From the NCBI GenBank assembly GCA_048884785.1, contig JBHLQM010000009.1, forward strand, positions 6,279 to 70,278: a DNA stretch of 64,000 nt. Reading direction: 5' to 3'. This document shows, piece after piece, positions 36,201 through 60,407 of the stretch. Position numbers and translations under genes: made by a program. Source of the stretch: Candidatus Thorarchaeota archaeon. GTDB taxonomy: Archaea > Asgardarchaeota > Thorarchaeia > Thorarchaeales > Thorarchaeaceae. Under the pieces are notes generated by a model. The model was given only the letters and a program-made list of their open reading frames with translations, was not told the origin of the DNA and did not search any database. How positions within the stretch are numbered: position 1 is the stretch's first letter; each line of letters begins with the position of its first letter.

Positions 36201-37844
36201 CTAGCCTTCTGACCTAGTGAGCCGTATTGATCCTATGAAGAGGACTACTGGTCCAATAATTAAGACGGGCAGAGCAGCTGTGAGACTTCCTAACAAAAAA
36301 CTTTCAATGAAGATTCCTGAACTGAACTCAATTATGAACCCAACTAGGATTGCAAACATAGAGATTAGCAGTGTTGCTATTGCATTCATATGGAATGCTG
36401 AGCTCTTTGTATCTTCATATGCTGGATTCAGGCATGTAATCCCGATGGCAACAAGTATTGTACTGCTCAGTACAAGATATGCGTGAATCATCATTATTCC
36501 TGCCTCAGCAATCTGGAATGAGAGAATCGTCGAGAGAATCACTACAGGGATTAGTACTATCGGGATGGCAAAGAAAAGGGCACTGATGACTCTGCCAGCC
36601 AAGAATTTCGATACGCCTCGATATGAGCTCTTAATAATCCATAGATGGTCCTTTGATTCTAAGAACCCAATGCCCCCAAATGTAAGTCCTCCTAACATCC
36701 CCAAAAACATACTGATAAAGAATGAAGTGAATACAACAAGATATAGTGCATCCTGAGTATTTCTAAGACTAGAATAGCTAATCATTAGGGGTACTATGAT
36801 CGATAACACGATTGCATAAACTACCTTTGATGTGTTCTGCGCCTTCCTCCCAAAGTCCTTCATCAGCATTACAATCAGAACACCTGCTGAACCAGGTGCA
36901 ACGCGTCTTATAGCACGAAGGAAAGCGTTCTCTCTCCCGGTCGTTGTAACTGTTTCTGTTCGAGCTCCAGATTCCAGACTAAAAATCCTGTCCGGCGTCA
37001 CAAATCCGAGAACCATGACCACTACGGCAAATATAGCAACAAGGGCAATATCTGACTCTATACCAAACTCTAGAATCTCCTCAAATATCGTGATGGCTTG
37101 AGAAGGAAGATCTATCCCATTAAAGTAAATGGTTATCCAAGTGACCAGGTCTGCTGCCCATGTCGATGGTAATAACAGAAAAACACTCAATCCTAATATC
37201 TGTGCGAATGTTTCAGCGAAATATATCAACCCATAAAGCGGCAGGAGGAATACAAGAACCACAACAAGACCCATAGCCTTTGCTATGTCATTTCCTCGAG
37301 CAGAGGTTCCGAGCTTTGCTTGAATTGCTGTACTAATCACTGTTGAAAGGAGAAGCGTAGCCAATACAAAGACTGCAATTACAACGTAGATAATCATTTG
37401 ACCTATAATTGAAACTTCATAGAGAATAAGAAATGGTGAAACTAAAAGTGGTGCCATGAAGAGGACCAGAAGGCTATAGGATGGTATTCTCCCTAAGAAC
37501 ATCCCCAATAGCATATCACGAGTACTAACATTGTTGCTGAGCATTACCTCCCATTGACCTATCTTTACTTCCTGCAGAGCATATGTTATCGGATAGACCA
37601 ACACCATTGTCCATAGAATGAGAATAAGTGACCTCATTACTCCCGGAAACGCCACTTGTAATAACTGTTGGACTTGTAGCGAAAACAAATCTAAAATCCC
37701 TATCATTATTGAAGGTGCCAGAAAGAATGCCCAAAATATCACAAAGAGAACCAGCAATAATGAAACATGATAGCGTCTTCTTCTGAACCTTGAGGTTGTG
37801 ACAAGAAGCTCTGCTTTTGCAATGGCCATCCATGCCCTTGGCAC
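36201..37844 (-). CDS. ABC transporter permease (polytopic, ABC-2-like)
   Basis: 547 aa and highly hydrophobic. The GTG start overlaps the stop of the ATPase gene by 1 nt. Confidence 0.55.
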   Translation of the reverse strand: MPRAWMAIAKAELLVTTSRFRRRRYHVSLLLVLFVIFWAFFLAPSIMIGILDLFSLQVQQLLQVAFPGVMRSLILILWTMVLVYPITYALQEVKIGQWEVMLSNNVSTRDMLLGMFLGRIPSYSLLVLFMAPLLVSPFLILYEVSIIGQMIIYVVIAVFVLATLLLSTVISTAIQAKLGTSARGNDIAKAMGLVVVLVFLLPLYGLIYFAETFAQILGLSVFLLLPSTWAADLVTWITIYFNGIDLPSQAITIFEEILEFGIESDIALVAIFAVVVMVLGFVTPDRIFSLESGARTETVTTTGRENAFLRAIRRVAPGSAGVLIVMLMKDFGRKAQNTSKVVYAIVLSIIVPLMISYSSLRNTQDALYLVVFTSFFISMFLGMLGGLTFGGIGFLESKDHLWIIKSSYRGVSKFLAGRVISALFFAIPIVLIPVVILSTILSFQIAEAGIMMIHAYLVLSSTILVAIGITCLNPAYEDTKSSAFHMNAIATLLISMFAILVGFIIEFSSGIFIESFLLGSLTAALPVLIIGPVVLFIGSIRLTRSEG

Positions 37845-42873: not shown

Positions 42874-45800
42874 TTGAGTGCCACTCCAACACCAACAACA
42901 GCCAAACGTAAGATTGGTTTTATGACACTACTTAGTTCAGTCTTTATTATTGCCATGATCGTCTGGGGCACGTACACCATAATTTTGATACAGGCTGGAG
43001 AAGTCAGGCAGCAGACTCCTCACACAAATCTCGATGATGTCCCACCTTGGATTTATGATTTGAACTGGAATGGCGGAAGAAGCAATTGGTTTGATAACAT
43101 CAATTATACAGATCTTCCACTAGACCAGATGCTTCCGGAAGACCTACTTGCACAGATGAATAACACACTATTTGTGGTTGAACCCGCAGACCCTGCGCAA
43201 CTGTGGAGAAGTAGCGCATATGACTCGTATGATGGATCTGGGTGGAGTAAGACCCTAATTGGAAGTACTCCTCTAGCGGCCACACCCAGAGCTCAAGCGA
43301 TTAATGAGATATACACAATCAGCATGAATGTTACAGTCAGTCCAAATATTGAGCCAATCGAACTACCATCGCTCTTTCCCAATATTAGAGTCATAGAGAA
43401 TTCGTTCCGAACATTTCCTGCAGGGCGGCTTATTGACTATGAGCTTGAAACAGATCAATACGACACGTTACTCTTCAGTCCATTTCTCTCTGGCTCCCTT
43501 GATGAAACCATCCTGATTAGCTATGATATCACGTATGATACTCAGGATGTGAATCATATAGAAACGCATGCGCGCTCTGGGGACTTTGCCGATGCCGAGA
43601 TTCAACGAATCTATGGCGATGTCGGAGTGACGCTCTCGCAGACAGTCATTGATGAAATCACTCCCTTCGAAACAGTTGGTAATACTGCCTATGAAAAAGC
43701 AATGGCTGTTGATGTCTTTTTCAGGAATAACTATCAGCTTCTAATAGATAGCGAGAATATTACTCAGCGTCCGCAAGGCCAAGAGTTGACGGAATGGTTC
43801 ATTGAACGAGGTGGGGGCTTACCAATGGACTTCGCCACAGCATACTGCGTCTTCATGCGCTATCTGGGGATTCCTGCTCGTATGACTCTAGGATATGCTA
43901 TAGGTGAACCCGATCCTGACGGGGGCGATTTTCGTTTAGTTCAAGTAAAACACATGATGTTCTGGGCAGAGGTCTATATCCCTCAGGACGACGGGCCAGG
44001 GCAGTGGATTCAGGTGATTCCGCTACCGTTGCCTCCTGGTTTTGGTGGTGGCGCACTACCCGAAAACTTCGATGAGGCTGATGTGAGTCTCTTGGTGTTT
44101 ACTCAACCTTGGGTTGAGATAGGGACGGACTTCAACATCTATGCTATTCTCTACGTGAATGGGGTTCCTGTAAACACCCCGGAGAATATCCGATTCTACG
44201 ATTTGACCGAAGGTGTAGATATTGGAATAGCTACAATAGAGCCCGCTCTCATTCCATTCGCAAATATCACACACCAATTTCCACCAGGTTCGTCAGTGGG
44301 AGCACACAATATTTCCGCGATGTGGGTTTCATCAACATTTCTTATTGCCAACTATACGTCCATTATTGCTGTTGGTCAGTCGAATCCTTTTCAAGCCCCT
44401 CCTTCGCAAACTTCTACGAGTTTTATTCCAAGTGAGATTATTGACATAAACATCAGCCTTGCACTGGATACCTATGTTGCCCATTGGAATGATACTCTAC
44501 GGGTTCATGGTGTGATGCGCATTTCGGGCGTTCCAGCAAATGGAACTGAGCTTGGCTTACTAGGTAACAATCAGATGTGGATTATGTGGGATGGATTGTG
44601 GTATGGAAATGCTACCATTGGTGATGATGGATACTATGAATTAGACATCATTGTGGATGGAACAGACATCATACGAATGACCCTAGAGCAACATAATGTA
44701 TCTGCATTCTTTGCTGGAATATACGATAAGCAAACAGGTTTTCCTATTGTGTTTCCTGGCCAATCGGCTAATTCGGTAGTGACTCTTCGGGGGTCGCCTG
44801 GATTCTATTTGACGGTAGCCCCTATCAATACCTATGGGGGAGGTAGTATAACATACGAAGGCATTGCGTACCTTTTCAATGGGACTCCATTGGTCGGTGA
44901 AACAATTGGAATACTCTTCGATGGATCGATAATTGACACCGCTATAACAAATGCCACTGGTGGGTTCAACTATGTATACAATATTCCACTACTTCATCCA
45001 TCTGGTGTATTTGATGCCGCTGTTAACTGGACCTCGACATATCCCCAGATTGACGGTGCAACAAGCAGTCCAATAGCAATCACAATTCAAAGTGGAAGCA
45101 CAACACTGACCATTGACTCCACTCCAAAGGATCCCTATCCTGTCCATATCTATGAAACAATTACAATCTTTGGGACACTCACAGTGTCTTCAGACGGAAC
45201 CCCACTTATTGGAAGAACAATTGAAATCTGGTGGGATTGGAATAACGGAACGGTACAACTCATCGGTACAAATACAACAATTGCTGGCGGATTTTATGAG
45301 TTCTCCTATAATATTCCTGCGGGATCAGAAGGAACCTCGACATACTGGACCGAATGGGACGCATCTGCTGAACCTAATTATCAAGATGGAATCTCATCTA
45401 CAATGGATATCGTCGTCAAAAGGTATGATATTATAGTTATTATTGACACAATACAGAGTTCTGTGGTTGTGGGTGAAGAACTGGACATCCAAGGATTCGT
45501 CTATCTTCCTGAAATTCCGGCTGTACTGGGTGGTGCTCATCTAACTCTTTGGTGGCAAAATGGAACTGGAACTCACAATATCACTGGAGTGTATACCAGT
45601 GTTGCAACAGGCATATACACATTCAATTATACAGTCCCTGTAACACACGAACTGGCTGGCGTACAACTATGGGCTGAGTATATTTCCGAGTCCCCAATGC
45701 TTAGCAGCAACATATCACTCTCTCTTGGAGTTGTAGTACGAAACTATTACTCCTATATCTCAATTCTATCAAACACATCTATCGTGCACCTAAACGAGTC

Positions 45801-48800
45801 TGTTTTAATCTATGGGTTTCTTCAACATGAAAATGGAACGCCTCTTGCTGGACTTGACGTTGATATACAATGGAACAATGGAACATCCTATTGGTTCCAG
45901 GTTGTCACGAATAGCAGTGGCTGGTATGAATTCTTGTATAACTGTTCCCCATCAACTGATAGTGAAGGAATTGTTACAGTAAGTGCATATCATACTTCTA
46001 TAGATCCTAGCTATAGTAGTTCAAGTGCAAGTTTGAGTCCCGCTCTCACCCTACAACTCTATCAGTTGACATTGGATGCAGACGTTGTTTCTAACAATGT
46101 TCACTTAGATGAAGTGATACAATTCTCTGGAACACTGACACTTGATGTGACAGGCACACCCATTGCTGGCGCTACAATTGTTGTCTATTATCAAAACAGC
46201 ACTGGCACATACACATTTCCAAAAGTCACTGATTTTGCTGGAGGTTTCTTTTTCCAGTACAACTGCTCGCTGAATGATGCACTTGGTGCCGTTTATGTCT
46301 GGGCTCAATACACGAGTCTTAACCCTCTATGGGACAATGCAATCTCATTGAATCGGACTGTCAACCTAATTCTCTACTCTATGACGCTGACAACAAATAC
46401 TGATAGTGTATCCTATTTCATTGATGATACAGTATACATCTGGGGCCAATTGACCTATACACACAACTCAACGCCTCTTCCGGGGCAATTAATCCAAATA
46501 TACTGGTATAATGGGTCAATAATCCCTCTGGGTTCATTTTCTACAAATTCGAGTGGCTATTTCGAATATTTCTACACCCTGCAACCAGGAAAGGATTCAG
46601 AAGGTTTTGTTACAGTCTGGGCGACATTCGCAACGTCGGTACCCCTATGGGATGATGCCGATTCAACTCCCGGAACAACATTTTCAGTTAACAAGTATGC
46701 AGTGATTATTGACGTTACAGTTGTCCCGAATCTTCAGTATCTGAACCGAAGCATAACCATACAGGCTCATATTTACTTCAGTCACAACGCAACCAATATT
46801 GCTGGTGCATCATTATCTCTCTGGTGGCAGAATGCTAGCATATACCTGCTTTCAACTGGTTTTAGTGATGGTTCCGGTAATTACCAATTCATATACTCTG
46901 GAATGGATGATGACACGTTCTTGACAGGTATTCAGATTTTTGCCAACTACTCAGGGTCTGCATACCTCCAAAACGCACAGTCATCTCCACAGAGTCTTAC
47001 ACTTCAGCGGTGGCTGACTCTAATCACTGGATTTGATACAGGTGGTGTCACTACTTTTCTGCTTACTGACACTCTGGTTGTTACGGGAACCCTGTTCTAT
47101 GACCTCACAGGGCCAGATGTTCCATATGGTGGAGCCATTGTTCAAATCCTTGTAGATGGCTCTGTTGTTAATACAACGACCACCGCATCGGATGGTACCT
47201 TCATAGGATATTGGGAGATTCCTGACATAACGCCTGTAGGAAATTATGACATTTCAGTGCGCCACTTATCAAGTGTCAACTGGATTGCTGATTATACCTC
47301 CTCACCCATATCAATCTCCATTCAGGCAATTACTATCATATGGATTTTTGAAGCGAACCCTACTATCGTTTATAGAAGCGAATGGCTGAATATCTCGGGG
47401 ATTTTGAGTCTTAGTAATGGCAGTCCATATGCAGGAGCTTCGGTACAACTCTACTGGCTGAACACAATAACAGCAACTGGTCAAATTCTCCTTGACACTG
47501 TTTCAACTGATGCAGGTGGAAGATTTGAGTATTGGTATCTTCTTAGCGACACTGAAGATCTAGGACCTACGCAGATCTGGGCAGAGTGCTCATCTGGTGT
47601 TCCTATAATAGGTGCGGGAATGTCCTCAGTAGAGCTCATAGATGTCATGCAGATTCCTGTGAACCTGACTGGAGGTGGTAGCCATACTCTAATCTATCTG
47701 GGAGATACAATTACCTTTAGTGGTACACTAACATTTGGTAATGGAACTCCAATGGTTGGCTACGGTGTTGAAGTCATCTGGGATGGTATCACCTTGGTAA
47801 CCATTACTATCACAGACGGGATTTCAGGTTCGTTCTCATATGATTATTATTTGGACTATGATGAGCCCGTGCGAACACTCACATACTACATTCAATTTGC
47901 GAAACCTTCAGAAGCCTATTCGGATGCACAGACTGCAAGTCAAGACCTTGAGATTCGCGACCTTATAACAATCGCAATTGATTCTCAGACAGTATTCTCT
48001 ATTATTCGAGGTGATACACTTCAGGTCACTGGCTTAGTAGCAAATTCCGGTGGACCTGATGTTGGGGTTCCACTTGAGCTTTTGCTAAATGGTGGTCAAG
48101 CAGGCATCTATGCTATCAGCGATACATTTGGTGAGTTTTCTTTTAATTTCCAGATTCGAAGGACTTACTCTCCCGGAATATACAATATCAGTGTGGGAGT
48201 GAACTCCCTGAACTATGATGTTACTGGATCTTCGGGTTACTGGATTATTCAATTGAATATAACCTCAGAAATTAGTGTTACATTTCTCAATCCATCTGAC
48301 ATCATGCCTGGTGAAACCTTTACGATATCGTTTACGATTCTCGACGATGACGGGAACACACCAGTAGGAGAACAAGTATCCATCTATCTATTGGAAGAAA
48401 ATGCCGGAGGTCCCAGCCCCGTTCTAATTGCTATTGTTGATATTCTTCCTGCAGGGCAGAATATCCATACGCTGACAATCAGTCTTGGTTCTTGGACAGG
48501 GAATGGCCTTTATTTTGCAGAGGTCAGATATTCAGGAAGCCAATTTGTTGTTGGTTCCTCAGATTCTACTTCACAGAGTATTCATGTTTTTGCAGATGCT
48601 GGATTCGTCAACTTAGGGCCCGGCATTGCTGTTCCGGCTCAACCAATCACTCTGACTGGCAATCTACTGGATTTAGAAGGAATTCCAATAAAGAATAGAT
48701 CGATAACGCTTACATTGAATGATTCGAGTGTTGTTACGCTAACAACCGGAACGGATGGTTCATTTCGTTATGACCTACCAGTAACCTATAGCGGTGAAGC

Positions 48801-49056
48801 AACATACACATATCGATGCCTATTTCTAAAGGCCGATGGTTCACGCGTAGAGGCAACACATACATTTCCAATAACTTCTGGGTTTGGTCCAGGCTTCAGC
48901 ACAGCTTTGTTAATTACATGGGCTGTAATTATAGCAATTGAGGCAATGGCAGCAATGCTAATTGTTGCACGATTTAGATATGGAAAAGGGTTTGGACTAG
49001 GTAGACTAGGTTTCCGAGCTCGCGCAACAGAAATACATGATTCATTAGTAGGGTGA
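42874..49056 (+). CDS. 2060-aa membrane-anchored surface protein: N-terminal TM, transglutaminase-like core, about 14 CarboxypepD_reg-like beta-sandwich repeats, C-terminal TM
   Basis: WRSSAYDSYDGSGW and MDFATAYCVFMRYLGIPARMTLGY ... HMMFWAEVY (TGase-like core, about 43666-44028). Periodic G.L....G.P..G..I.I.W repeats. Hydrophobic segments at both ends. TTG start with GAGGA upstream. Confidence 0.8.
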   Translation: MSATPTPTTAKRKIGFMTLLSSVFIIAMIVWGTYTIILIQAGEVRQQTPHTNLDDVPPWIYDLNWNGGRSNWFDNINYTDLPLDQMLPEDLLAQMNNTLFVVEPADPAQLWRSSAYDSYDGSGWSKTLIGSTPLAATPRAQAINEIYTISMNVTVSPNIEPIELPSLFPNIRVIENSFRTFPAGRLIDYELETDQYDTLLFSPFLSGSLDETILISYDITYDTQDVNHIETHARSGDFADAEIQRIYGDVGVTLSQTVIDEITPFETVGNTAYEKAMAVDVFFRNNYQLLIDSENITQRPQGQELTEWFIERGGGLPMDFATAYCVFMRYLGIPARMTLGYAIGEPDPDGGDFRLVQVKHMMFWAEVYIPQDDGPGQWIQVIPLPLPPGFGGGALPENFDEADVSLLVFTQPWVEIGTDFNIYAILYVNGVPVNTPENIRFYDLTEGVDIGIATIEPALIPFANITHQFPPGSSVGAHNISAMWVSSTFLIANYTSIIAVGQSNPFQAPPSQTSTSFIPSEIIDINISLALDTYVAHWNDTLRVHGVMRISGVPANGTELGLLGNNQMWIMWDGLWYGNATIGDDGYYELDIIVDGTDIIRMTLEQHNVSAFFAGIYDKQTGFPIVFPGQSANSVVTLRGSPGFYLTVAPINTYGGGSITYEGIAYLFNGTPLVGETIGILFDGSIIDTAITNATGGFNYVYNIPLLHPSGVFDAAVNWTSTYPQIDGATSSPIAITIQSGSTTLTIDSTPKDPYPVHIYETITIFGTLTVSSDGTPLIGRTIEIWWDWNNGTVQLIGTNTTIAGGFYEFSYNIPAGSEGTSTYWTEWDASAEPNYQDGISSTMDIVVKRYDIIVIIDTIQSSVVVGEELDIQGFVYLPEIPAVLGGAHLTLWWQNGTGTHNITGVYTSVATGIYTFNYTVPVTHELAGVQLWAEYISESPMLSSNISLSLGVVVRNYYSYISILSNTSIVHLNESVLIYGFLQHENGTPLAGLDVDIQWNNGTSYWFQVVTNSSGWYEFLYNCSPSTDSEGIVTVSAYHTSIDPSYSSSSASLSPALTLQLYQLTLDADVVSNNVHLDEVIQFSGTLTLDVTGTPIAGATIVVYYQNSTGTYTFPKVTDFAGGFFFQYNCSLNDALGAVYVWAQYTSLNPLWDNAISLNRTVNLILYSMTLTTNTDSVSYFIDDTVYIWGQLTYTHNSTPLPGQLIQIYWYNGSIIPLGSFSTNSSGYFEYFYTLQPGKDSEGFVTVWATFATSVPLWDDADSTPGTTFSVNKYAVIIDVTVVPNLQYLNRSITIQAHIYFSHNATNIAGASLSLWWQNASIYLLSTGFSDGSGNYQFIYSGMDDDTFLTGIQIFANYSGSAYLQNAQSSPQSLTLQRWLTLITGFDTGGVTTFLLTDTLVVTGTLFYDLTGPDVPYGGAIVQILVDGSVVNTTTTASDGTFIGYWEIPDITPVGNYDISVRHLSSVNWIADYTSSPISISIQAITIIWIFEANPTIVYRSEWLNISGILSLSNGSPYAGASVQLYWLNTITATGQILLDTVSTDAGGRFEYWYLLSDTEDLGPTQIWAECSSGVPIIGAGMSSVELIDVMQIPVNLTGGGSHTLIYLGDTITFSGTLTFGNGTPMVGYGVEVIWDGITLVTITITDGISGSFSYDYYLDYDEPVRTLTYYIQFAKPSEAYSDAQTASQDLEIRDLITIAIDSQTVFSIIRGDTLQVTGLVANSGGPDVGVPLELLLNGGQAGIYAISDTFGEFSFNFQIRRTYSPGIYNISVGVNSLNYDVTGSSGYWIIQLNITSEISVTFLNPSDIMPGETFTISFTILDDDGNTPVGEQVSIYLLEENAGGPSPVLIAIVDILPAGQNIHTLTISLGSWTGNGLYFAEVRYSGSQFVVGSSDSTSQSIHVFADAGFVNLGPGIAVPAQPITLTGNLLDLEGIPIKNRSITLTLNDSSVVTLTTGTDGSFRYDLPVTYSGEATYTYRCLFLKADGSRVEATHTFPITSGFGPGFSTALLITWAVIIAIEAMAAMLIVARFRYGKGFGLGRLGFRARATEIHDSLVG
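44400..48850 (+). repeat. protein-level tandem repeats (about 14 modules of about 95-110 aa) inside the giant ORF
   Basis: Recurring module, e.g. ITIFGTLTVSSDGTPLIGRTIEIWWDWNNGT...GGFYEFSYNIP, VLIYGFLQHENGTPLAGLDVDIQWNNGTS...SGWYEFLYNCS, and IQFSGTLTLDVTGTPIAGATIVVYYQNSTGT...GGFFFQYNCS. Boundaries are approximate. Confidence 0.75.
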
Positions 49057-49520
49057 TAAGAATGCAGATTGACATCAACATCATAATGCCAATTGTTGCA
49101 CTCTCAGGTGCTGTGATTGTGGTACTCCTATACCTCTACTTTGTCAAAGGCATGTTTAAGGGTACAATCAGGACTGTTGCATCTGTAGACATCCCTGGCA
49201 AGCTAAGAAACATCAAGAAGCTTGCAGATGCAGGTAAATATGATGCGGCAATAACATTGGCTTTCCGCACCTTTGAGCAGATGTGCGGGATGAAAATTGG
49301 GTCGGAAAGAATGTCCTCTGAAACAGCAAGGGAGTACATAGAGAGAGTTCTCAAAGTAATACCTCTTGATGCAGAATCAGTTGAAGAATTCGTCAGAGCC
49401 TATGAAGAAGCCAGATTCTCAGGTCATGATATCTCTCGAGATCGATACGAGCTGGCCATCAAGGTCTTCACTGACATTTATCCGCGCATAGAAGGTGCAA
49501 CACCAATAAGGGCTGAGTGA
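49053..49520 (+). CDS. DUF4129-like membrane-anchored protein
   Basis: N-terminal TM. The C-terminal TAREYIERV ... FVRAYEEARFSGHDISRDRYE pattern is typical of DUF4129. The GTG start overlaps the upstream stop (GTGA). Confidence 0.55.
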   Translation: MIRMQIDINIIMPIVALSGAVIVVLLYLYFVKGMFKGTIRTVASVDIPGKLRNIKKLADAGKYDAAITLAFRTFEQMCGMKIGSERMSSETAREYIERVLKVIPLDAESVEEFVRAYEEARFSGHDISRDRYELAIKVFTDIYPRIEGATPIRAE

Positions 49521-50941
49521 AGAAGGGATACCGAGGAGCGATATCAATGGGATGGAAGGAAGCCTTGCAGATTGGGATTTTTGTTTTAGCATGGCTCCCA
49601 ATTGGTTTCTTAGCCGGAGTTACAGTCTTTGGCAATCCTCCCAATCTCTATGACAATATGGATTTTTCAATCTATAATACCAACTGGAACGGATGCAGTA
49701 ATTTCAGGATTCAGATCGAGCAAGATGGATTCAGTACATTATCTATTCAATCAACTATGAGTGTTATCACCCGATACAATGGGAGTGCAGTTCTCTTTAT
49801 TATGGGCCCTGTAAAAGACTTCACTTTTGATATACTTACGATTTTCCAGCATCTCATCGCTGGGGGTACAGTTGTAATAGCAGATGACTTTGGAACTGCA
49901 AATAGCTCGCTGTATTTGCTTAATTCCTACTTATTTAATCAGACAGGAGCAGCAAGTTTTCTAAGTGCCTTAGGAGTAACTGGATTTCTCTCATTCACAA
50001 AGGGTGTGGTCATGGATCTTGATTCCTACTACCTAAGCCCAAGGTTGCCAATAATACGTGATTTCCACCCTTATCATCCAATCACTTCTGGCGTTTCTGA
50101 GTTGTATCTAAACAATGCATCTGCGATTACCCCAACATGTGCACTTGGAGCTGCAGGAATAGCTTGGACAACAAATAGGGCGTGGAGTGAAACTGATGTA
50201 GATAATGCCACGCCAAGTCCAGACCTAAACGAATGGGCTGGAACCTTGCCAATAATAGGAGCTCTCGACTTATCGCTTATTTGGGCTGGCGCAGGAAAGC
50301 TAGTGGCAATTTCAGATCCTAGCATATTCATAAACGATATGTGGGATGAGTTTGATGGCAATCGACGCCTGGGTAGGAATTTAGTCAACTGGATAACTGA
50401 TGGAAATCCTGAGATTCCGATTATCTTTAGTGAGGAAACACTTGCAACGCCTATTATTTCTGGAGAGTTCTTCTTTGGAAGTTTTATGGGACGAATGCTC
50501 TGGGCAAGCACGAATGTCTTCCTAGCCCCAATTTATCCCCTAATGACAGCAGTGGGATTGAAGAAATACCTCCCAGATATGAAGAAGCCTGAGATGAAGA
50601 GTGTTTCAGAGGTCTTCATGAGAAGAGGACAGACCTACTTTAGCGAACGAATGACTTACTATAGAACTGAAGGAAACTATGCACGAGTTGTAAAGATGCT
50701 ATATCGAAAACTACGTCGATCACTCACCAAAAAATACCAGTGGAGTGAGTACAATAAGAAGAAGGTCTGGGACCTAATTCAGTATAGAGATCCTTCAATA
50801 AAAGAGGGGGCTTTCTTCAAGACAATAGATAGGATTGAAGAAATCTCCTCGAGACAGAATGTTAGAATAAGAGAGAGCGAAATGATGAAGCTCTTCTTTT
50901 GGATGAGGAACATCCAAGATAAACTAATTGAAGCGAAATGA
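49517..50941 (+). CDS. DUF4350-like membrane protein (TM, extracytoplasmic domain, TM, cytoplasmic tail)
   Basis: Topology and operon position. VLFIMGP ... LIAGGTVVIADDFG resembles DUF4350. The GTG start overlaps the upstream stop. Confidence 0.4.
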   Translation: MKKGYRGAISMGWKEALQIGIFVLAWLPIGFLAGVTVFGNPPNLYDNMDFSIYNTNWNGCSNFRIQIEQDGFSTLSIQSTMSVITRYNGSAVLFIMGPVKDFTFDILTIFQHLIAGGTVVIADDFGTANSSLYLLNSYLFNQTGAASFLSALGVTGFLSFTKGVVMDLDSYYLSPRLPIIRDFHPYHPITSGVSELYLNNASAITPTCALGAAGIAWTTNRAWSETDVDNATPSPDLNEWAGTLPIIGALDLSLIWAGAGKLVAISDPSIFINDMWDEFDGNRRLGRNLVNWITDGNPEIPIIFSEETLATPIISGEFFFGSFMGRMLWASTNVFLAPIYPLMTAVGLKKYLPDMKKPEMKSVSEVFMRRGQTYFSERMTYYRTEGNYARVVKMLYRKLRRSLTKKYQWSEYNKKKVWDLIQYRDPSIKEGAFFKTIDRIEEISSRQNVRIRESEMMKLFFWMRNIQDKLIEAK

Positions 50942-50956
50942 GGTGGAACAGAATAA

Positions 50957-51940
50957 ATGACAGAAGCAACCGGCCCCAATGAAGAAATCCTTGGTCCACC
51001 CATGACCATTTCGGAGGTGCATGATCTCACATCTGAGATTCTTCGCGAGTGTGGAAGAATAATTGTCGGCAAAATAGACATAATGCGCGACACGCTAATT
51101 GCTTTCCTCTCCAATGGTCATGTGGTTCTTGAGGGTGTGCCAGGTCTTGCGAAGACGTACATGGCTCGTACATTCGCGGCAGTCCTTGGATGCGCTTTCA
51201 AGAGGATTCAGCTAACGGTGGACACTCTACCTGCTGATCTTTTGGGGAGCAACGTATTCAATCAGAAGACTGGCGAGTTCTGGTTTCGAAAAGGACCTGT
51301 GTTTTCCAATCTGGTTTTAGCCGATGAGATTAACAGATGTCCTCCAAAATCTCAAAGTGCACTGCTCGAAGTTATGGAGGAGCGCCAAGTATCAACCGAA
51401 GGTGTGACGCGAAAGCTACCTGAGCCTTTCCTAATCATCGCAACCCAGAACCCTGTTGAACAAGAGGGCACATATCCTCTACCAGAAGCACAGCTTGATA
51501 GATTCATGTTCAGATTGATATTGGACTATCCAACTGGCTCCGAAGAGGCGGAGGTTGTTCGCAGAAAACATCAAGGTGAAGCCAGTGACCTGCGTGTACT
51601 TGCAGATCCTGGAACAATGATGCGGATGCAAAATACGTGTAGGACTGTATTTGTGGACGAAGATATAATCAACTATATCCGTGATATAATTGTGAAGACT
51701 AGAAATGACCCTCAGATACTGCTAGGCGGCTCGCCCAGAGCATCACTTGTCCTAATGGGCGCTGCAAAGGCGAGAGCGGCAATGCATGGACGGGATTATG
51801 TAGTACCGGAAGATGTCCGAAGACTTGCCGTGCAAGCTTTGAATCACCGTTTGATACTCAAACCAGAAGCAGAACTCGAAGGCCTTACTGTCGATCGAAT
51901 TGTCAGTAAGGTTATGGGAGAGGTAGACTGTCCTCGATAG
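50957..51940 (+). CDS. moxR: MoxR-family AAA+ ATPase
   Basis: Walker A-like LEGVPGLAKT, Walker B LLADEINR, PK.QSALLE.M.E.QV, and ATQNP.E.EGTYPLPEAQLDRF. Confidence 0.9.
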   Translation: MTEATGPNEEILGPPMTISEVHDLTSEILRECGRIIVGKIDIMRDTLIAFLSNGHVVLEGVPGLAKTYMARTFAAVLGCAFKRIQLTVDTLPADLLGSNVFNQKTGEFWFRKGPVFSNLVLADEINRCPPKSQSALLEVMEERQVSTEGVTRKLPEPFLIIATQNPVEQEGTYPLPEAQLDRFMFRLILDYPTGSEEAEVVRRKHQGEASDLRVLADPGTMMRMQNTCRTVFVDEDIINYIRDIIVKTRNDPQILLGGSPRASLVLMGAAKARAAMHGRDYVVPEDVRRLAVQALNHRLILKPEAELEGLTVDRIVSKVMGEVDCPR

Positions 51941-51968
51941 AAGGCGTTCGGCACTGGAGAAGAGCTAG

Positions 51969-53291
51969 ATGATTACGCAGAGAGGGTTTGTGGTTCTGTT
52001 TGCTGGAGTCGTCCTACTGACAAGTGGATTCGCCTTCAACAACTTCTACCTAACTCTGATTGGCGTTTACCTTTGTGTAGGACTTGTTGTAACACTTCCT
52101 CTCTTTGCGATGACGGCTAACATTTCCGGCATTCTTGTGGAACGCTATATTGACAAAGTAAAGGTATTCTCTGGCGATTTTCTAAGGGTAAAAGTCACAA
52201 TTCGAAACACCTCACGGAGGCATTTTGATTTCATTGAAGTCCATGATCAATATCCTGAGCTCTGGATTCTTGCTATTGGAGCTAACTTCATTGCATCGCG
52301 AATTCAACCTGGAGGGAGCATCACCTTCTCTTACATCCTCCAAGTGAGAATGCGGGGGAGGTATTATTTGGGCCCAACAGAGGTAATCATGCGAGATAGA
52401 CTAGGTCTACATTATTACAAGCGCACACTAAAGGAACAGACCGAAGTCTTGGTCTATCCAACATGGAAGGATGTTAGGAGACTTGAAGCCCTCGGGAAGC
52501 AAAGACATCTTGGACGTATGTTTGGAGCACATAGAACCAAAGTCATAGGAATGGGCACTGATTTCGCAGGGTTTAGAGAATATGTCCCAGGGGATTCTTT
52601 TAGGAATATTGACTGGAAAATAAGCGCGAAACGCGGGGATATGATTGTCAGGCAATATGAGATGGAGAAGAATATTCAGGTTGTTTGTATGGTCGACACA
52701 AGTGGATCTATGGGAAATGGATACCCTGAGAACACGAAACTTGAGTATGCTATCAGGGCTGCAGTCCTTCTTTCTCATATGGGCTTGGAACGAAAGGACC
52801 TTGTAGGAACATGTGTATTCAGCGATGTGGTTCACTCTTATGTTCCACCTTCCACTAATCCAAATCACATGTACAATGTCCTTGAATCGCTTGCATTGGC
52901 AGAACCAAAAGGTTGGAGTGACTATGAAACAGCTATATCATATGTCACTCAACAGACCAAGAAACGATCATTCATTATCTGGCTCACAGACTTGGAGGAA
53001 TCTCCAGCACCACTCCTAAATGCTATGAAGTCGGTCATCGCTAATGGACATAAGGCCATGGTCATCAGTCCTTTTGGCCCATGGTTTGAAGCTCCGGTTG
53101 GACAGTTTGGCCCTGTCGAGAAAGTGCTTTCTGAAGCCGTCTCTGAGGAGCTATGGGAGCGCCGGCAAAAAATTACTCGGGCTCTAGCAAGATTCGGAAT
53201 CAATGTTGTTAACGTCGGTCCAGAAGATTTCTTGCCGACTATTATCAAGCAGTATGAAACTGCAAAACAGAAGGGGGTTGCGATGTTTTGA
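51969..53291 (+). CDS. DUF58 protein (vWA-like domain), partner of MoxR
   Basis: Signature FREYVPGDSFRNIDWKISAKRGDMIVRQYEME, followed by the vWA-like VVCMVDTSGSM. Confidence 0.85.
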   Translation: MITQRGFVVLFAGVVLLTSGFAFNNFYLTLIGVYLCVGLVVTLPLFAMTANISGILVERYIDKVKVFSGDFLRVKVTIRNTSRRHFDFIEVHDQYPELWILAIGANFIASRIQPGGSITFSYILQVRMRGRYYLGPTEVIMRDRLGLHYYKRTLKEQTEVLVYPTWKDVRRLEALGKQRHLGRMFGAHRTKVIGMGTDFAGFREYVPGDSFRNIDWKISAKRGDMIVRQYEMEKNIQVVCMVDTSGSMGNGYPENTKLEYAIRAAVLLSHMGLERKDLVGTCVFSDVVHSYVPPSTNPNHMYNVLESLALAEPKGWSDYETAISYVTQQTKKRSFIIWLTDLEESPAPLLNAMKSVIANGHKAMVISPFGPWFEAPVGQFGPVEKVLSEAVSEELWERRQKITRALARFGINVVNVGPEDFLPTIIKQYETAKQKGVAMF

Positions 53292-54670
53292 GAGCTATCA
53301 CTTGGGTTTTGCGAATACTTTCTACTGCTGCCTTCATTGGGATGTGTCTCCTAGTCTACGATGCAATGAGAGGATACTGGGATTGGGACGCTCCATACAT
53401 ATTCATTGTGACAGTTTTCCGTTTGATATCCATGGTTCTTTTCTTTGTTGGATCACTTGTCATGGTTGGCCTTGTTGCGCCTTTCACAGGAGGAACTCCT
53501 AGTGATGCGCTTGTCGGCCTGTATAACACGCAACTTCTTAGGATGTGGTACATGCAGCCTTATGGCGTTACTGGACCTTTTACATCAGTGAATCAAGTCT
53601 TCAACAGCTTCATTTCTAATATTGGAGGGATCTGGAGGATTCTTTCTGAGTACTCATTCACATTTCTGTATTTTTTGGGTGCTGCACTCGGTATCGCCTT
53701 CTTTCTCCAATCACTTGTACGAATGGAACACAAGTTTGTTGGCGGAGCTTTTCTTGGGATTCAATCTGTTTTGATTGTTGCCGCTTACCGTTTGATAACA
53801 ATTCCGAATTTTGAGGGCGGCTTCCCGGCTGATTTCTTCAGTTTTCTATCAAGCGGAGTTCAAATTCTGGCTCTAGTTTCTTTTGCCTATATTGAGATAA
53901 GCTATCAGATGATTTATAGTGATTCTGTTGGAAAACCTGTTGAAGAGCGTGAAAACACACTCAAGAAACAACTGCTGGCCCTGCGTCAAACGACAAGAAA
54001 GCAAGAATCAATAGAACGTGGTGAAAAGGTTAGTACAACGGCTATGAGTCGGACTTCAGGAGCTACAGCATTCTCCTTCCTAAGAGAAGCAATAGAACGA
54101 AGGGTGTTTGGTGGCAAAGAAGTAGTTGAAAGCCTTGACGCAATTGCAGACGTGCGGCGACTTCAGATTTTTGTGGATGAGCTATTTTCGGCTGATCCAG
54201 ATGCACGGGATGAGCTCACAGCAAAAGCTGCTGCTCCATCTTCTGGCTATGTAATATCCTCAACTATCATTGGATCTGCTGTTCGGTTTGTAGGAGTAAT
54301 AACAATCTCATTTGTTTTTATGAACCCCGCGTTTTTCACAGTGTTGTTCAATCTTCCACCAGGTGTTGAGAATAGTGTTGAAATACTTCAACCCGAGCTA
54401 GTCGTCTTTTTCATGGTTCCTATTCTTTTTCTCTTTGTACTGATAGCAATGGTAATCAGCTGGAATACAGCTCGTGAAGTTCCTGAGAAGGCGAAACTGC
54501 CTTCAGAAGAAAAGGAGAAGCAAAAACAGAGAAAGAAAGAGATTGCGATCAAAAGAAAGGCTGCAAGGGAGTCCCGGAAGGAGCGCGAAAGGGCAAGAAG
54601 GAAGCGAAAGGAGTCCGGTGAAGGAAAAGATGAATGGGATAGAGCCCTTGAAGATACATTCAAGAGATGA
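53288..54670 (+). CDS. polytopic membrane protein with a Lys/Arg/Glu-rich C-terminal tail
   Basis: Multiple hydrophobic segments. Tail: EKAKLPSEEKEKQKQRKKEIAIKRKAARESRKERERARRKRKESGEGK. The TTG start overlaps the DUF58 stop (TTGA). Confidence 0.55.
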   Translation: MRAITWVLRILSTAAFIGMCLLVYDAMRGYWDWDAPYIFIVTVFRLISMVLFFVGSLVMVGLVAPFTGGTPSDALVGLYNTQLLRMWYMQPYGVTGPFTSVNQVFNSFISNIGGIWRILSEYSFTFLYFLGAALGIAFFLQSLVRMEHKFVGGAFLGIQSVLIVAAYRLITIPNFEGGFPADFFSFLSSGVQILALVSFAYIEISYQMIYSDSVGKPVEERENTLKKQLLALRQTTRKQESIERGEKVSTTAMSRTSGATAFSFLREAIERRVFGGKEVVESLDAIADVRRLQIFVDELFSADPDARDELTAKAAAPSSGYVISSTIIGSAVRFVGVITISFVFMNPAFFTVLFNLPPGVENSVEILQPELVVFFMVPILFLFVLIAMVISWNTAREVPEKAKLPSEEKEKQKQRKKEIAIKRKAARESRKERERARRKRKESGEGKDEWDRALEDTFKR

Positions 54671-57904: not shown

Positions 57905-58252
57905 TTAGCGTTTGTGCAGCATCGAAATCATTTGAAAAAGACTGGCGGCATCAATACCCCATATCCGAAGTATTTTTTCCCTAGATTTTAGGCCGGAAAT
58001 GATTGCTATATTACTAGTCGAAGTATTGAGTGCTTTTGCCAATCTCTTTACAAGCTCTGTATTCGCCCTACCTTCTCTTGCAGGTCCTTTCAAATTCACC
58101 ACTAGTAGTGACTCAGAAAACTCTGCTATCAGATCACGGTCTGTGGCATTTGGCTTAACCTGAACTCTAAGGAATGTGCCTTTCTCATTCTCCCAGACTA
58201 CATTTTCGTCCATTTTGCATGACACCTGAGCTTTGTCATATAATAGTTCCAA
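57905..58252 (-). CDS. DUF167 (YggU-like) protein
   Basis: VQVKPNA ... LVVNLKGPAREGRANTELVKRLAKAL ... IISGLKSREKILRI. Confidence 0.7.
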   Translation of the reverse strand: MELLYDKAQVSCKMDENVVWENEKGTFLRVQVKPNATDRDLIAEFSESLLVVNLKGPAREGRANTELVKRLAKALNTSTSNIAIISGLKSREKILRIWGIDAASLFQMISMLHKR

Positions 58253-58329
58253 TCACGATTTCTTTTTATGGAGTGCTTGCAGCTATCTCGTGAATAACCG
58301 TGTGATAAACCCACGGGGTGAAAATAATA

Positions 58330-58710
58330 ATGTCTGATCCTGTAATGGACGCATATACACAAGCATACAATTCCTCTGGACAAATGATACAGGCGTTTGG
58401 AGTGATTCGGTCTGATGGTGCAGTATTATGGCAGAGTAATAATTGGTCACTTGAAGCAGATGCAAGGAGCCTTGTTGCTGCCGTTACGAGTCGAGCTGCC
58501 AGTGTGACTCAAAATCAGGTCAAATATAGCACAATGCGAACGAGTCCCGAAAGCCTAGTGGCTCGAAGTGTTCAGGGCAATGGTATTCTGGTCCTCGCGA
58601 AGATTGACAATGACAAGTGGGTAGTTGCCTGGGCATCACCTGATGCTGCGCCAGATGGTGTTTATGTTGATGTTGATCGGGCCGCGAAGGCCTTAAAGGG
58701 AAGAATTTAG
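58330..58710 (+). CDS. profilin-like protein 1
   Basis: 126 aa. AFGVIRSDGAVLWQS.NW.L ... VKYSTMR ... LVAR...GNGILVLAKIDNDKWVVAW ... VDRAAKALK follows the profilin fold pattern. GGGGTGA lies 8 nt upstream of the ATG. Confidence 0.65.
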   Translation: MSDPVMDAYTQAYNSSGQMIQAFGVIRSDGAVLWQSNNWSLEADARSLVAAVTSRAASVTQNQVKYSTMRTSPESLVARSVQGNGILVLAKIDNDKWVVAWASPDAAPDGVYVDVDRAAKALKGRI

Positions 58711-58815
58711 AACAAAAAGATAGACTGGGGGAAGACTGCAAGAGTTTCCCCCCTTCTACTGCATCAAACGAAAGGGGAGTTTCCAAACCGCAAGATAGTT
58801 AGGTGATATTCAACC

Positions 58816-59181
58816 GTGTCAATCTCTGAAATCTGGGCAAACCTTTACTCCCACAATCCGAAGATACAGGCTTTTGCGGTTTCACAGGATGGGGAAATAG
58901 TCTGGCAAACTGACAATTGGAATCTTGTTGACACTGTAGGGGAATTGTTTGCAGCCTATGATAGAGGCGCTTCAGAAGTAAGAATTGCAAAAGTATCCTA
59001 CACCATAATGAGTGCTACTGATGAGTCGCTTGTGGCATCATCCAAAGACAAGAAGGGCCATTTTCTTATGACCAAGGCAGACAAAACAGTATGGTTTCTG
59101 GCTTGGATAACGCACGATTCTGTTCCTGAGCTTACATTAGTAGATTTGAAATATGCAGCAACTCAGCTTGCACACATATAG
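58816..59181 (+). CDS. profilin-like protein 2 (tandem paralog)
   Basis: 121 aa. EIWANLY N-terminus, AFAVSQDGEIVWQTDNWNL ... VSYTIMS ... LVASSKDKKGHFLMTKADKTVWFLAW ... YAATQLAHI. GTG start with AGGTGA upstream. Confidence 0.6.
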   Translation: MSISEIWANLYSHNPKIQAFAVSQDGEIVWQTDNWNLVDTVGELFAAYDRGASEVRIAKVSYTIMSATDESLVASSKDKKGHFLMTKADKTVWFLAWITHDSVPELTLVDLKYAATQLAHI

Positions 59182-59307: not shown

Positions 59308-59541
59308 GTGAGTATTCTTGCTTTCATTCTACTGAACGTGGAAATGGCATTTCAACGAGAAACTCTTGAAAAAGTCAGGGCTCTTGATGAAGTGATAGAG
59401 GCCCACCTAATCTTTGGAACTTACGATATTATAGTAAAGGCAGAATTCCCCACAAACCAAGAACTAAGCCTATTCGTGGTTGACAGGCTTAAGACGCTGC
59501 CAGGAGTTGGGGAAACACAGACGAATATCTGCTCGGATTAG
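59308..59541 (+). CDS. stand-alone Lrp/AsnC-type ligand-binding (RAM) domain protein
   Basis: 77 aa. AFILLNVE ... V.AL.EVIEAHLIFGTYDIIVKAEF ... L..FV...L..LPGV..TQT.I. Confidence 0.65.
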   Translation: MSILAFILLNVEMAFQRETLEKVRALDEVIEAHLIFGTYDIIVKAEFPTNQELSLFVVDRLKTLPGVGETQTNICSD

Positions 59542-59606: not shown

Positions 59607-60407
59607 CTACTTGCTTTTGAAGAGCAAATCTCTCATTCGTTTGTGAAGATCTATATACTCTGGTGAGGCCATAGCATGCATTGTCACAAGAAACTCGAAC
59701 ATATCCAGAACTTCTTTATCTGCAACATCGCTACGAATCATCTTTGCGACTTCTCCACGACCAGTAACTTCTTTCTTATAGGCCTCCACGCGGAGTTTGA
59801 CTATCTCATCTTTCTCTTTCTCCGTCAATTGAATATCAAAAGTCTTCATGAGCTTGTCGAGGTAATCAGTGCTCTTCTTGAATAGCATCTTCTCATCTGC
59901 GCCCAACATGCTAGTTACGAGGACAAAACCTTTGGCTGTTCTTCTATAATAGTGGGTTTCTCGCTTTCCTGTAATCACCTTTCCAAGTTCAATAATGTAC
60001 CCTGCTTCCATAAGTTTCGGTAGATGGTGATATACTTGATTTTTGGTGATTTCCTCTACGTCCTTATGCTCCTTTGACATCTTTACAATTTCAACAACAG
60101 AGAGAGCATTTCGCTTGACTTCACGTTGGCGAATAATAGTGTCACCGGTTTCCTTATCCTTGGTCTTCGTGGTCTTAGTGTCTTCAACACCTCTTCGTAG
60201 AATCTGAAGGATCGTCAGTCTTGCTGTGTCGTCGAGTTCTTTGGCTCGCTGCTCATCAGACACGAATTCGAATTCCACAACTGGTTTCTTTGCTTCTGGA
60301 GTCAGTATGATGCCGTCCAGAGTATCTGTGATTTCGTCAGTCATTGTATCACCCTTGTATTCAGAATATACCCATGATTGCTCTGTGCAAATCTTCCTTA
60401 ACGCCAA
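59607..60407 (-). CDS. winged-helix (ArsR-like) transcriptional regulator with an acidic N-terminus and a helical C-terminal domain
   Basis: RLTILQILR ... LSVVEIVKMS ... ITKNQVYHHLPKLMEAGYI wHTH pattern. Divergent from the micro-ORF operon. Confidence 0.55.
   Translation of the reverse strand: MALRKICTEQSWVYSEYKGDTMTDEITDTLDGIILTPEAKKPVVEFEFVSDEQRAKELDDTARLTILQILRRGVEDTKTTKTKDKETGDTIIRQREVKRNALSVVEIVKMSKEHKDVEEITKNQVYHHLPKLMEAGYIIELGKVITGKRETHYYRRTAKGFVLVTSMLGADEKMLFKKSTDYLDKLMKTFDIQLTEKEKDEIVKLRVEAYKKEVTGRGEVAKMIRSDVADKEVLDMFEFLVTMHAMASPEYIDLHKRMRDLLFKSK

Follow-up and report, generated by a model that had tools for sequence, protein, structure and literature searches.

A tandem pair of diverged profilin genes conserved across Thorarchaeota

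Introduction

Do Thorarchaeota rely on one profilin or on two? The question is raised by a 64,000-nt stretch of a Candidatus Thorarchaeota genome (assembly GCA_048884785.1, contig JBHLQM010000009.1, positions 6,279 to 70,278 of the forward strand; hereafter the window, numbered from its first letter), in which two adjacent open reading frames (ORFs) on the plus strand both read as profilins. ORF1 (58330–58710, ATG to TAG) encodes 126 amino acids (aa) and ORF2 (58816–59181, GTG to TAG) encodes a divergent paralog of 121 aa. Few eukaryotic signature proteins have been studied as well as the Asgard profilins, which are cited for regulated actin dynamics of pre-eukaryotic origin, and the published work on Thorarchaeota profilin concerns the ORF1 type alone. 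As argued below, the two genes may constitute a two-gene operon in which ORF1 is the main profilin and ORF2 a specialized second isoform, a reading to which we assign a probability of roughly 0.7.

An initial annotation of the sequence had proposed tandem same-strand ORFs of 126 and 121 aa, and both were found at the coordinates above, separated by a spacer of 105 nt. The motifs WQ(S/T)xNW, K/S-Y-S/T-x-M, LVA(R/S) and WxxAW that it quoted are present, as is QAF, but the spacing around ‘DG’ was one residue off, the actual patterns being A-x-x-V-x-x-x-DG-x-x-L-W in ORF1 and A-x-x-V-x-x-DG-x-x-V-W in ORF2. A TAA 24 nt 5′ of the ATG closes the ORF1 frame, so that the protein could gain at most four residues (from GTG 58318). 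Every named relative of the two proteins belongs to a metagenome-assembled genome (MAG) of Thorarchaeota or to a MAG labeled generically as Promethearchaeota/Asgard, and NCBI assembly GCA_048883445.1 encodes an identical ORF1 protein on a contig whose gene order matches the window.

Two profilins by sequence and predicted fold

Searched against the sequences of the PDB, ORF1 matched 7pbh_A (‘Profilin’) over its full length (E=3e-61), followed by the Asgard profilins 5zza_P (2.8e-9), 6yrr_A (3.8e-6), 5yed_A and 5zzb_A, and ORF2 recovered 7pbh_A (6.3e-15), 5zzb_A (1.8e-5), 5zza_P (7.2e-5) and 5yed_A (2.3e-4). The two window proteins share 37% identity over 108 aa (BLASTP, E=3e-21), and their family alignments match across 130 columns (hhalign, probability 99.8%, E=1.6e-28). 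Profilin was the sole Pfam family reported for either protein, with no Roadblock/LC7 model at E≤10; at E≤0.01 it was detected in 47 of 51 members of the ORF1 family vs. 5 of 35 members of the ORF2 family. NCBIfam returned no match for ORF1 or ORF2.

AlphaFold2 models of ORF1 (predicted local distance difference test score, pLDDT, 88.3; predicted template-modeling score, pTM, 0.79) and ORF2 (pLDDT 92.8, pTM 0.86) share the predicted element order H-E-E-H-E-E-E-E-E-H (H, helix; E, strand), in which a central helix of 9–10 residues is followed by three strands. Profilins differ from Roadblock proteins in having a three-strand motif in place of half the central helix (PMC10933270), and this profilin-defining motif is visible in both models. 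When compared with the PDB by Foldseek, the ORF2 model ranked the Odin profilin 5zza_P at the top (E=3e-11; TM 0.89/0.90; root-mean-square deviation, rmsd, 1.5 Å), then Loki profilins 1 and 2 together with 7PBH (the latter at TM 0.80, rmsd 2.2 Å and 26% identity), and then eukaryotic profilins (TM 0.7–0.8, rmsd 2.2–2.5 Å). For the ORF1 model 7PBH came first (75% identity), with otherwise the same ranking pattern. Across both models, the Asgard profilin matches lay at TM 0.8–0.9 and rmsd 1.5–2.7 Å, and Roadblock/MglB/LAMTOR structures ranked below the profilins at TM 0.5–0.7 and rmsd 4–8 Å.

The matches to 7PBH and to the Odin and Loki profilins, together with models that rank Asgard and then eukaryotic profilins first, bear out the profilin identity that had been proposed; by sequence and predicted fold, ORF1 and ORF2 are profilins. 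A Roadblock/LC7 fold with no profilin similarity, the outcome that the initial annotation had set against its own proposal, was not what Foldseek and Pfam returned, because Foldseek places Roadblock/LC7/MglB clearly below profilins. Aligning each family by hhalign with a single human profilin-1 sequence (verified against the PDB) yielded nothing (probability <1%), so that structure and sub-threshold Pfam matches are what link the pair to eukaryotic profilins.

The top ORF1 match, 7PBH, is the nuclear magnetic resonance (NMR) structure of the Thorarchaeota profilin TFG12995.1 (A0A524EIQ6) from isolate TEKIR_14 (PMC8410842; bioRxiv 10.1101/2021.08.06.455371), here called thorProfilin. Judged by sequence, ORF1 is its ortholog and so is not new; the ORF1 family is 68–90% identical across Thorarchaeota and nearly always 126 aa long. 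Published experiments describe weak binding of a VASP poly-proline peptide by thorProfilin (dissociation constant 250–500 µM) and slowed elongation of rabbit-actin filaments at 100 µM (PMC8410842), as well as co-localization with F-actin in HeLa cells (bioRxiv 10.1101/2021.08.06.455371). The thorProfilin source genome is among our loci (L016), and a copy of ORF2 is present there, too.

ORF2 accompanies ORF1 across Thorarchaeota

Homologs of ORF2 fell into 35 clusters, all labeled ‘hypothetical protein’, without a precomputed Pfam domain and with no more than 53% identity to the copy in the window. To survey the pair, the ORF1 family was scanned against one genome per GTDB species, which gave 76 loci. 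A full-length ORF2 lies directly downstream of ORF1 in 71 of these. It is partial in three others, L010 and L070 (contig end) and L073 (assembly gap), and in L013 the contig stops before the ORF2 position. The pair is thus found at 74 of 75 informative Thorarchaeota species loci. We considered a loss of ORF2 in L073 and rejected it, as the assembly contains a run of N there.

L031 is the sole species locus without an intact ORF2. Some 650 nt of extra sequence follow ORF1 in this genome (L031:4382-5300) and include a 55-aa ORF (4453–4620) that looks recombinase-like by eye; a faint ORF2-like remnant lies at ~5039–5239 (E 0.17–0.28). A mobile-element insertion or an assembly error may explain the extra sequence.

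Repeated duplication of profilins in Asgard archaea is already known, with lineage-specific expansions cited in PMC10933270, as is ORF1 itself from its characterized ortholog. We found no description of the tandem partner, its spread through Thorarchaeota or the asymmetric divergence of the pair; the accessible text of the two Thorarchaeota profilin papers mentions neither a paralog nor a tandem layout, and the accession of the neighboring gene (ORF2) was not found in the supplements of PMC8410842. Provisionally, ORF2 is a so far undescribed profilin copy.

Origin of the second gene

Searched exhaustively with HMMER, 1.84 billion representative proteins gave only 90 matches to the ORF2 profile. 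Beyond the ORF2 family itself, the best full-length matches were P0163, an Asgard protein (103 bits), and the ORF1 representative P0059 (89 bits), followed by a Jord/Freyarchaeia ‘profilin family protein’ (86.5 bits) and other Asgard profilins (≤69 bits). In a bootstrapped neighbor-joining (NJ) tree, the ORF1 clade was supported at 100% and the ORF2 clade at 74%. A phylogeny with Asgard profilins had been put forward in the initial annotation as a check; the tree does join ORF1 and ORF2, though at a bootstrap of 62% only.

Gene order is more informative here than the tree. The profilin gene is single in the P0163 lineage, in a Heimdall/Hod MAG and on a Jord/Frey-type contig (loci L084, L085, L086 and L088), and sensitive tblastn detected no second profilin copy in these outgroup loci. 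In L084, L085 and L088, i.e. all three outgroup loci with a readable upstream flank, the single profilin adjoins a divergently oriented DUF167 gene, the same neighbor that ORF1 has in the window. For this reason ORF1 is the positional ortholog of the ancestral Asgard profilin, and ORF2—since outgroups keep one gene and Thorarchaeota the pair—would be a tandem duplicate from the Thorarchaeota stem. We hold this timing, i.e. that ORF2 arose in the Thorarchaeota stem lineage, with moderate confidence on the sequence evidence. The pair had been described as an old and well-diverged duplication, in keeping with its presence before the Thorarchaeota radiation.

The same search also recovered multidomain metagenomic proteins containing a profilin-like domain (P0192, P0206, P0178, P0216, P0181, P0168, P0182 and relatives). 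In some of these, the domain is fused to a Ras-family GTPase (P0192, P0206), a TrmB-type winged-helix domain (P0178, P0216) or an MIT domain (P0181). Another profilin-like group possesses a conserved C-terminal ‘...GLAAYIDYY...QIFNF’ module behind a low-complexity linker.

Asymmetric constraint on the two paralogs

Selection was assessed across 2346 genome pairs from the 69 species in which both genes are complete, and the ratio of nonsynonymous to synonymous substitution rates (dN/dS) was derived from the 83 pairs with unsaturated dS. Mean identity amounted to 0.75 for ORF1 and 0.47 for ORF2; ORF2 was the less conserved protein in 99.9% of the 2346 pairs, with a 2.3-fold higher dN. With median dN/dS values of 0.043 (ORF1) and 0.099 (ORF2), both genes are clearly under purifying selection, and for ORF2 this value argues against a decaying copy.

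Site classification found 16 columns to be conserved and identical in both families, namely the A-F-x-V strand, W-Q, N-W-x-L, Y66/Y62, G85/G81, A-W-A, P108/P104, D114/D110, A119/A115 and L122/L118 (ORF1/ORF2). Eight columns are conserved but different (V5/I3, Y9/W7, A12/L10, G17/N14, M19/K16, G24/A21, S36/T32 and G110/L106), mostly in the N-terminal helix and strand β1. A further 21 columns are conserved in ORF1 only, including the MSDP N-terminus, K65 and R70 (β4), G83, and Y112 and D116 (C-terminal helix), and two are conserved in ORF2 only. The spacing of ORF1 K65-x-S67-x-x-R70 equals that of human profilin-1 K69-x-S71-x-x-R74, and ORF1 Y112, D116 and R117 correspond in helical register to human N124, Y128 and E129; we take these human residues to be actin contacts. 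Read in this way, sites conserved in ORF1 on the presumed actin-binding face have relaxed in ORF2. ORF2, in turn, retains G81-H82 (His in 96% of copies), the GxGH motif that is shared by the Odin and Loki profilins and by many further ones from Asgard archaea but is replaced in ORF1. With the ORF1-only sites on one side and the GxGH motif kept in ORF2 on the other, the paralogs would each preserve their own portion of the ancestral surface. Constraint has been lost in a strongly asymmetric manner.

At the positions equivalent to the poly-proline site, ORF1 carries V5, Y9, T10, W34, K120, L122 and I126, and ORF2 carries I3, W7, A8, W30, T116, L118 and I121. The N-terminal-helix aromatic (Y9/W7) and the β2 tryptophan (W34/W30) are kept in both families, and neither has a C-terminal aromatic. 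The initial annotation had noted the lack of an aromatic cluster at both termini; this holds for the C-terminus, but not for the N-terminal aromatic and the β2 tryptophan, which are conserved, and the ORF1 ortholog does bind the VASP peptide weakly. Binding of phosphatidylinositol 4,5-bisphosphate (PIP2) has been reported for other Asgard profilins.

Signals suggesting joint and unequal expression

The ORF1 leader is an unusually conserved piece of DNA across the class (–90 to –1 in 68 loci; window 58250–58322), in which a ATCAAGGATTTGTTTATTTGG-type block, an AGACCGT-like motif at ~–25 to –35 and the Shine-Dalgarno (SD) box ACGGGGTGAA follow one another. In the window, the conserved ATCAAGGATTTGTTTATTTGG block corresponds to CAATCACGATTTCTTTTTATGG (58250–58271, plus strand), a TFB-recognition-element (BRE)/TATA block 60–80 nt upstream of the ORF1 ATG and a putative promoter. 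In 56 of 68 loci there is a TATA-like hexamer between –85 and –40, and its positions peak sharply at –70 to –60. The SD-like box ACGGGGTGAA (58313–58322, plus strand) sits 6–9 nt before the start in essentially all 69 loci. ORF2 is preceded by an SD-like box of its own, AGGTGAT (58801–58807, plus strand), 9 nt before GTG 58816, the position being occupied by GGTGG, GGAGG or GGTGA in other loci.

In the spacer between the genes, 7 of 69 loci have a TATA-like hexamer and 6 of 69 at least five consecutive T, and because such signals are rare there, ORF2 is most likely co-transcribed with ORF1. These features suggest a bicistronic ORF1–ORF2 operon. In the window the spacer can form a stem-loop (58714–58764, plus strand) around a GGGGGA...UCCCCC core (58727–58753), with a folding energy of –18.8 kcal/mol (z=–3.06) that was matched by none of 200 shuffles. 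A G4...C4 hairpin soon after the ORF1 stop recurs in 23 of 69 spacers, as compared with 0.8 expected by shuffling (at most 4), and in none of the 69 regions downstream of ORF2. Loop sequences of the spacer stem-loops (L008–L083) vary by clade, and no T-tract follows them. Folding z-scores for whole spacers are weak (median –1.2), and significance is reached only by the local hairpin and by the motif count across loci. Neither Rfam, applied to the locus, nor ARAGORN, applied to the whole window, gave a match, and in view of the missing Rfam match the hairpin does not belong to a known RNA family. We can only guess at a role in mRNA processing, stability or attenuation.

Start codons differ between the genes, with 48% ATG and 52% TTG/GTG for ORF2 and 88% ATG for ORF1. 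The spacer stem-loop and the frequent TTG/GTG starts suggest lower production of ORF2 than of ORF1.

The start of ORF1 itself deserves comment, as the published form of thorProfilin has 18 more N-terminal residues (MCGYNLGTEWISLRSKLE). This extension is impossible in the window because of the TAA 24 nt upstream of the ORF1 ATG. In the TEKIR_14 genome (L016:3944-4000; cf. window 58306–58329), MCGYNLGTEWISLRSKLE is encoded from an in-frame ATG 18 codons 5′ of the conserved MSDP start and agrees with the ‘cysteine at position 2’ given in PMC8410842; the stretch overlaps the conserved SD box and begins ~5 nt past a TATA-like element. Of 69 species, 51 have an in-frame stop no more than 19 codons upstream of the ORF1 start (39 of them no more than five codons away), and in species with an open upstream frame the extension peptide is not conserved. 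Hence the ‘extended N-terminus’ of thorProfilin is probably a start-codon miscall and not part of the native protein. Such an artifact, if true, bears on the interpretation of the structural and binding results obtained with thorProfilin.

Genomic neighborhood

The conserved gene order around the pair comprises DHHA1, an OPT transporter, DUF167 (opposite strand), ORF1, ORF2 and a stand-alone AsnC/RAM gene. The DUF167/YggU-family gene (57905–58252, minus strand; PF02594, E=4e-18) is a conserved divergent neighbor, and its pairing with profilin recurs in Thorarchaeota, the Heimdall/Hod MAG and the P0163 lineage (L084:3566-4378, L085:176-988, L088:2513-3357). The pair is hence conserved across classes; a functional link is not known. 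Downstream, a 77-aa gene (59308–59541, plus strand) encodes a stand-alone AsnC/Lrp ligand-binding (RAM) domain (PF01037, E=5e-15) with no DNA-binding domain, and it directly follows ORF2 on the same strand in six of six loci inspected for gene content (L001–L006). Another conserved neighbor of the profilin locus, a 266-aa ORF (59607–60407, minus strand), has a winged-helix look by eye.

The rest of the window holds housekeeping genes ordinary for archaea, among them those for FttA, proteasome beta, Rpo4, Pus10, KsgA, DUF655, PAC2 and SepF. In the region 42874–54670, a protein of 2060 aa combines a transglutaminase core with numerous Ig-like/carboxypeptidase-regulatory-like repeats and is followed on the same strand by genes for DUF4129, DUF4350, a MoxR-type AAA+ ATPase and DUF58/VWA and by a 460-aa gene without a Pfam match. 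The four genes from DUF4350 onward are also found upstream of the profilin locus in L004 and L005, which encode an identical ORF1 protein. No Pfam match at E≤0.001 was obtained for the ORFs at 2927–3964 (plus strand, 345 aa), 32318–34588 (minus, 756 aa), 36201–37844 (minus, 547 aa) and 53288–54670 (plus, 460 aa), nor for the 266-aa ORF above.

Discussion

How might the two genes share the work? In the reading that we favor, ORF1 would be the principal, very slowly evolving profilin at the ancestral Asgard position beside DUF167, most likely binding actin monomers via β4–β6 and the start of the C-terminal helix and thereby controlling their addition to filaments. ORF2 would derive from a tandem duplication in the Thorarchaeota ancestor and have been retained since. 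It appears to preserve the full profilin fold, the core and an aromatic groove (W7, Y11, W30) at the poly-proline positions of other profilins, with a presumed actin face that is altered and less constrained, and it is probably co-transcribed from the ORF1 promoter at a lower level. Rather than being a redundant copy, ORF2 may bind actin with altered affinity, an actin-related protein, or a different poly-proline or other ligand. The parts of this account differ in strength. Fold, paralogy and operon, taken jointly as a description, we regard as very probably correct; that ORF2 acts as a specialized second actin regulator is an evenly balanced proposition at present, argued from its sequence.

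Several points weigh against this account. Both proteins score below the gathering score of 25 bits for the Pfam Profilin model PF00235 (22.0 bits, E=1.9e-4 for ORF1; 16.2 bits, E=0.012 for ORF2), an operational cut-off and not a biological criterion. The ORF1-only sites were placed on the actin face by helix and strand register, not by superposition. The operon and the expression ratio are read from sequence signals alone, and binding of actin by ORF2 is a prediction. The published effects of thorProfilin required 100 µM protein and heterologous rabbit actin. The initial annotation had suggested looking for actin and gelsolin homologs in the rest of the genome, and a Pfam survey of ~50 ORFs of the 64-kb window detected neither; Asgard genomes do encode actin-related proteins (PMC7444086). 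Finally, sister support for ORF1 and ORF2 is moderate (the 62% NJ bootstrap), and P0163 outscores ORF1 against the ORF2 profile. The last two points would also suit a somewhat older duplication followed by loss elsewhere, a conceivable alternative to an origin in the Thorarchaeota stem.

The most serious competing explanations concern the partner of ORF2. Its scaffold could have lost canonical binding of actin monomers and now serve another partner, e.g. an actin-related protein, a proline-rich protein or a membrane lipid. The relaxation in ORF2 of 21 ORF1-invariant sites, including K65 and R70 in β4 and Y112 and D116 in the C-terminal helix, its ~2.3 times faster evolution, and the clustering of the eight conserved-but-different sites in the N-terminal helix and β1 all fit such a loss. 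However, ORF2 keeps the G81-H82 of the GxGH motif that ORF1 lost, as well as P104, L106 and D110 where the C-terminal helix begins, and its model superposes on the actin-bound Odin profilin at 1.5 Å; we consider such a loss unlikely, if credible. A related and marginally less unlikely idea is that ORF2 represents a repurposed, Thor-wide profilin subfamily that keeps the scaffold and the aromatic N-terminal groove but has given up canonical actin-monomer binding for another partner, and whose dosage relative to ORF1 would be set by the operon, the stem-loop and the weak start codon; if true, prokaryotes would have specialized profilin isoforms independently of eukaryotes. Alternatively, ORF1 and ORF2 could form an obligate heterodimer in the manner of paired Roadblock/LAMTOR proteins, with the operon ensuring joint production. 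Near-universal co-occurrence, tight adjacency and probable co-transcription would be expected of such partners, and profilin, Roadblock and longin domains have in common a core fold whose central region mediates dimerization in Roadblock (PMC10933270). Yet in profilins this central region is replaced by the actin-binding three-strand motif (PMC10933270), which is present in both models; thorProfilin that was expressed singly yielded an NMR structure whose core is rigid and showed activity on its own; and the very unlike evolutionary rates argue against a tightly co-evolving interface. An obligate heterodimer is accordingly improbable.

Two further explanations deny one or both genes a profilin role, and we give them very little weight. 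Some JGI entries name members of the ORF1 family ‘predicted regulator of Ras-like GTPase activity (Roadblock/LC7/MglB family)’, Roadblock structures do appear among the Foldseek matches, and Ras-family GTPase domains are fused to related profilin-like domains in metagenomic proteins; both proteins might thus be small-GTPase regulators of the Roadblock/LC7/MglB type. That assignment is highly improbable given the poorer superposition on Roadblock structures (TM 0.5–0.7 and rmsd 4–8 Å, against 0.8–0.9 and 1.5–2.7 Å for Asgard profilins), the extra strands after a short central helix, a Pfam result that names Profilin only, and the profilin structure of the ORF1 ortholog. Scarcely credible, finally, is that ORF2 is a decaying and functionless duplicate. 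It evolves faster than ORF1, often starts at a non-ATG codon and has no intact copy in L031, but a median dN/dS of 0.099, an intact full-length ORF in 71 of 76 species loci across the class, at least 16 invariant positions and a confidently folded model all speak for a maintained gene.

A two-gene operon with ORF2 as a specialized isoform, the reading preferred here, refines the picture of Asgard profilins rather than changing it, because their duplication is already documented. Nearly every Thorarchaeota genome, TEKIR_14 included, encodes a selectively maintained second profilin that annotation pipelines have overlooked. As ORF2 is near-universal and selectively kept, accounts of actin regulation in these archaea that use ORF1 alone are incomplete, which makes ORF2 a clear target for biochemistry.

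Comparison with known profilins and related folds

The closest characterized relative of the pair is thorProfilin, which shares with ORF1 ~75–80% identity, equal length (counted from the conserved MSDP start) and genomic context. To ORF2 it is a paralog (E=6e-15): ORF2 lacks the invariant K65, R70, Y112 and D116 of ORF1, and carries His82 at a position that is Ile or Leu in ORF1.

The best structural matches of ORF2 are the Odin profilin and Loki profilin-1 and -2 (5ZZA, 5YED/5YEE and 5ZZB, solved with rabbit actin), at TM 0.88–0.91 and rmsd 1.5–2.3 Å; for the ORF1 model the corresponding TM range is 0.79–0.88. Sequence identity of these profilins to the window proteins is 19–26% only. ORF2 has the G-x-G-H strand motif in common with them, whereas the extended ‘Loki loop’ of the Loki profilins is absent in ORF1 and ORF2.

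Roadblock/LC7/MglB and longin domains of Asgard archaea (PDB 7F8M, 9JUE) share with the pair a five-stranded β-sheet core with flanking helices (PMC10933270). These domains lack the profilin-specific three-strand insertion, however, and form homodimers via the central helix.

Eukaryotic profilins (PF00235; human PFN1, Acanthamoeba profilin I and yeast profilin) have the overall fold in common with ORF1 and ORF2 (TM 0.7–0.8, rmsd 2.2–3.5 Å), but their sequence likeness is marginal, and the C-terminal-helix aromatics (human H133 and Y139) are missing in both window proteins. Isoform pairs of unlike ligand affinity are common among eukaryotic profilins.

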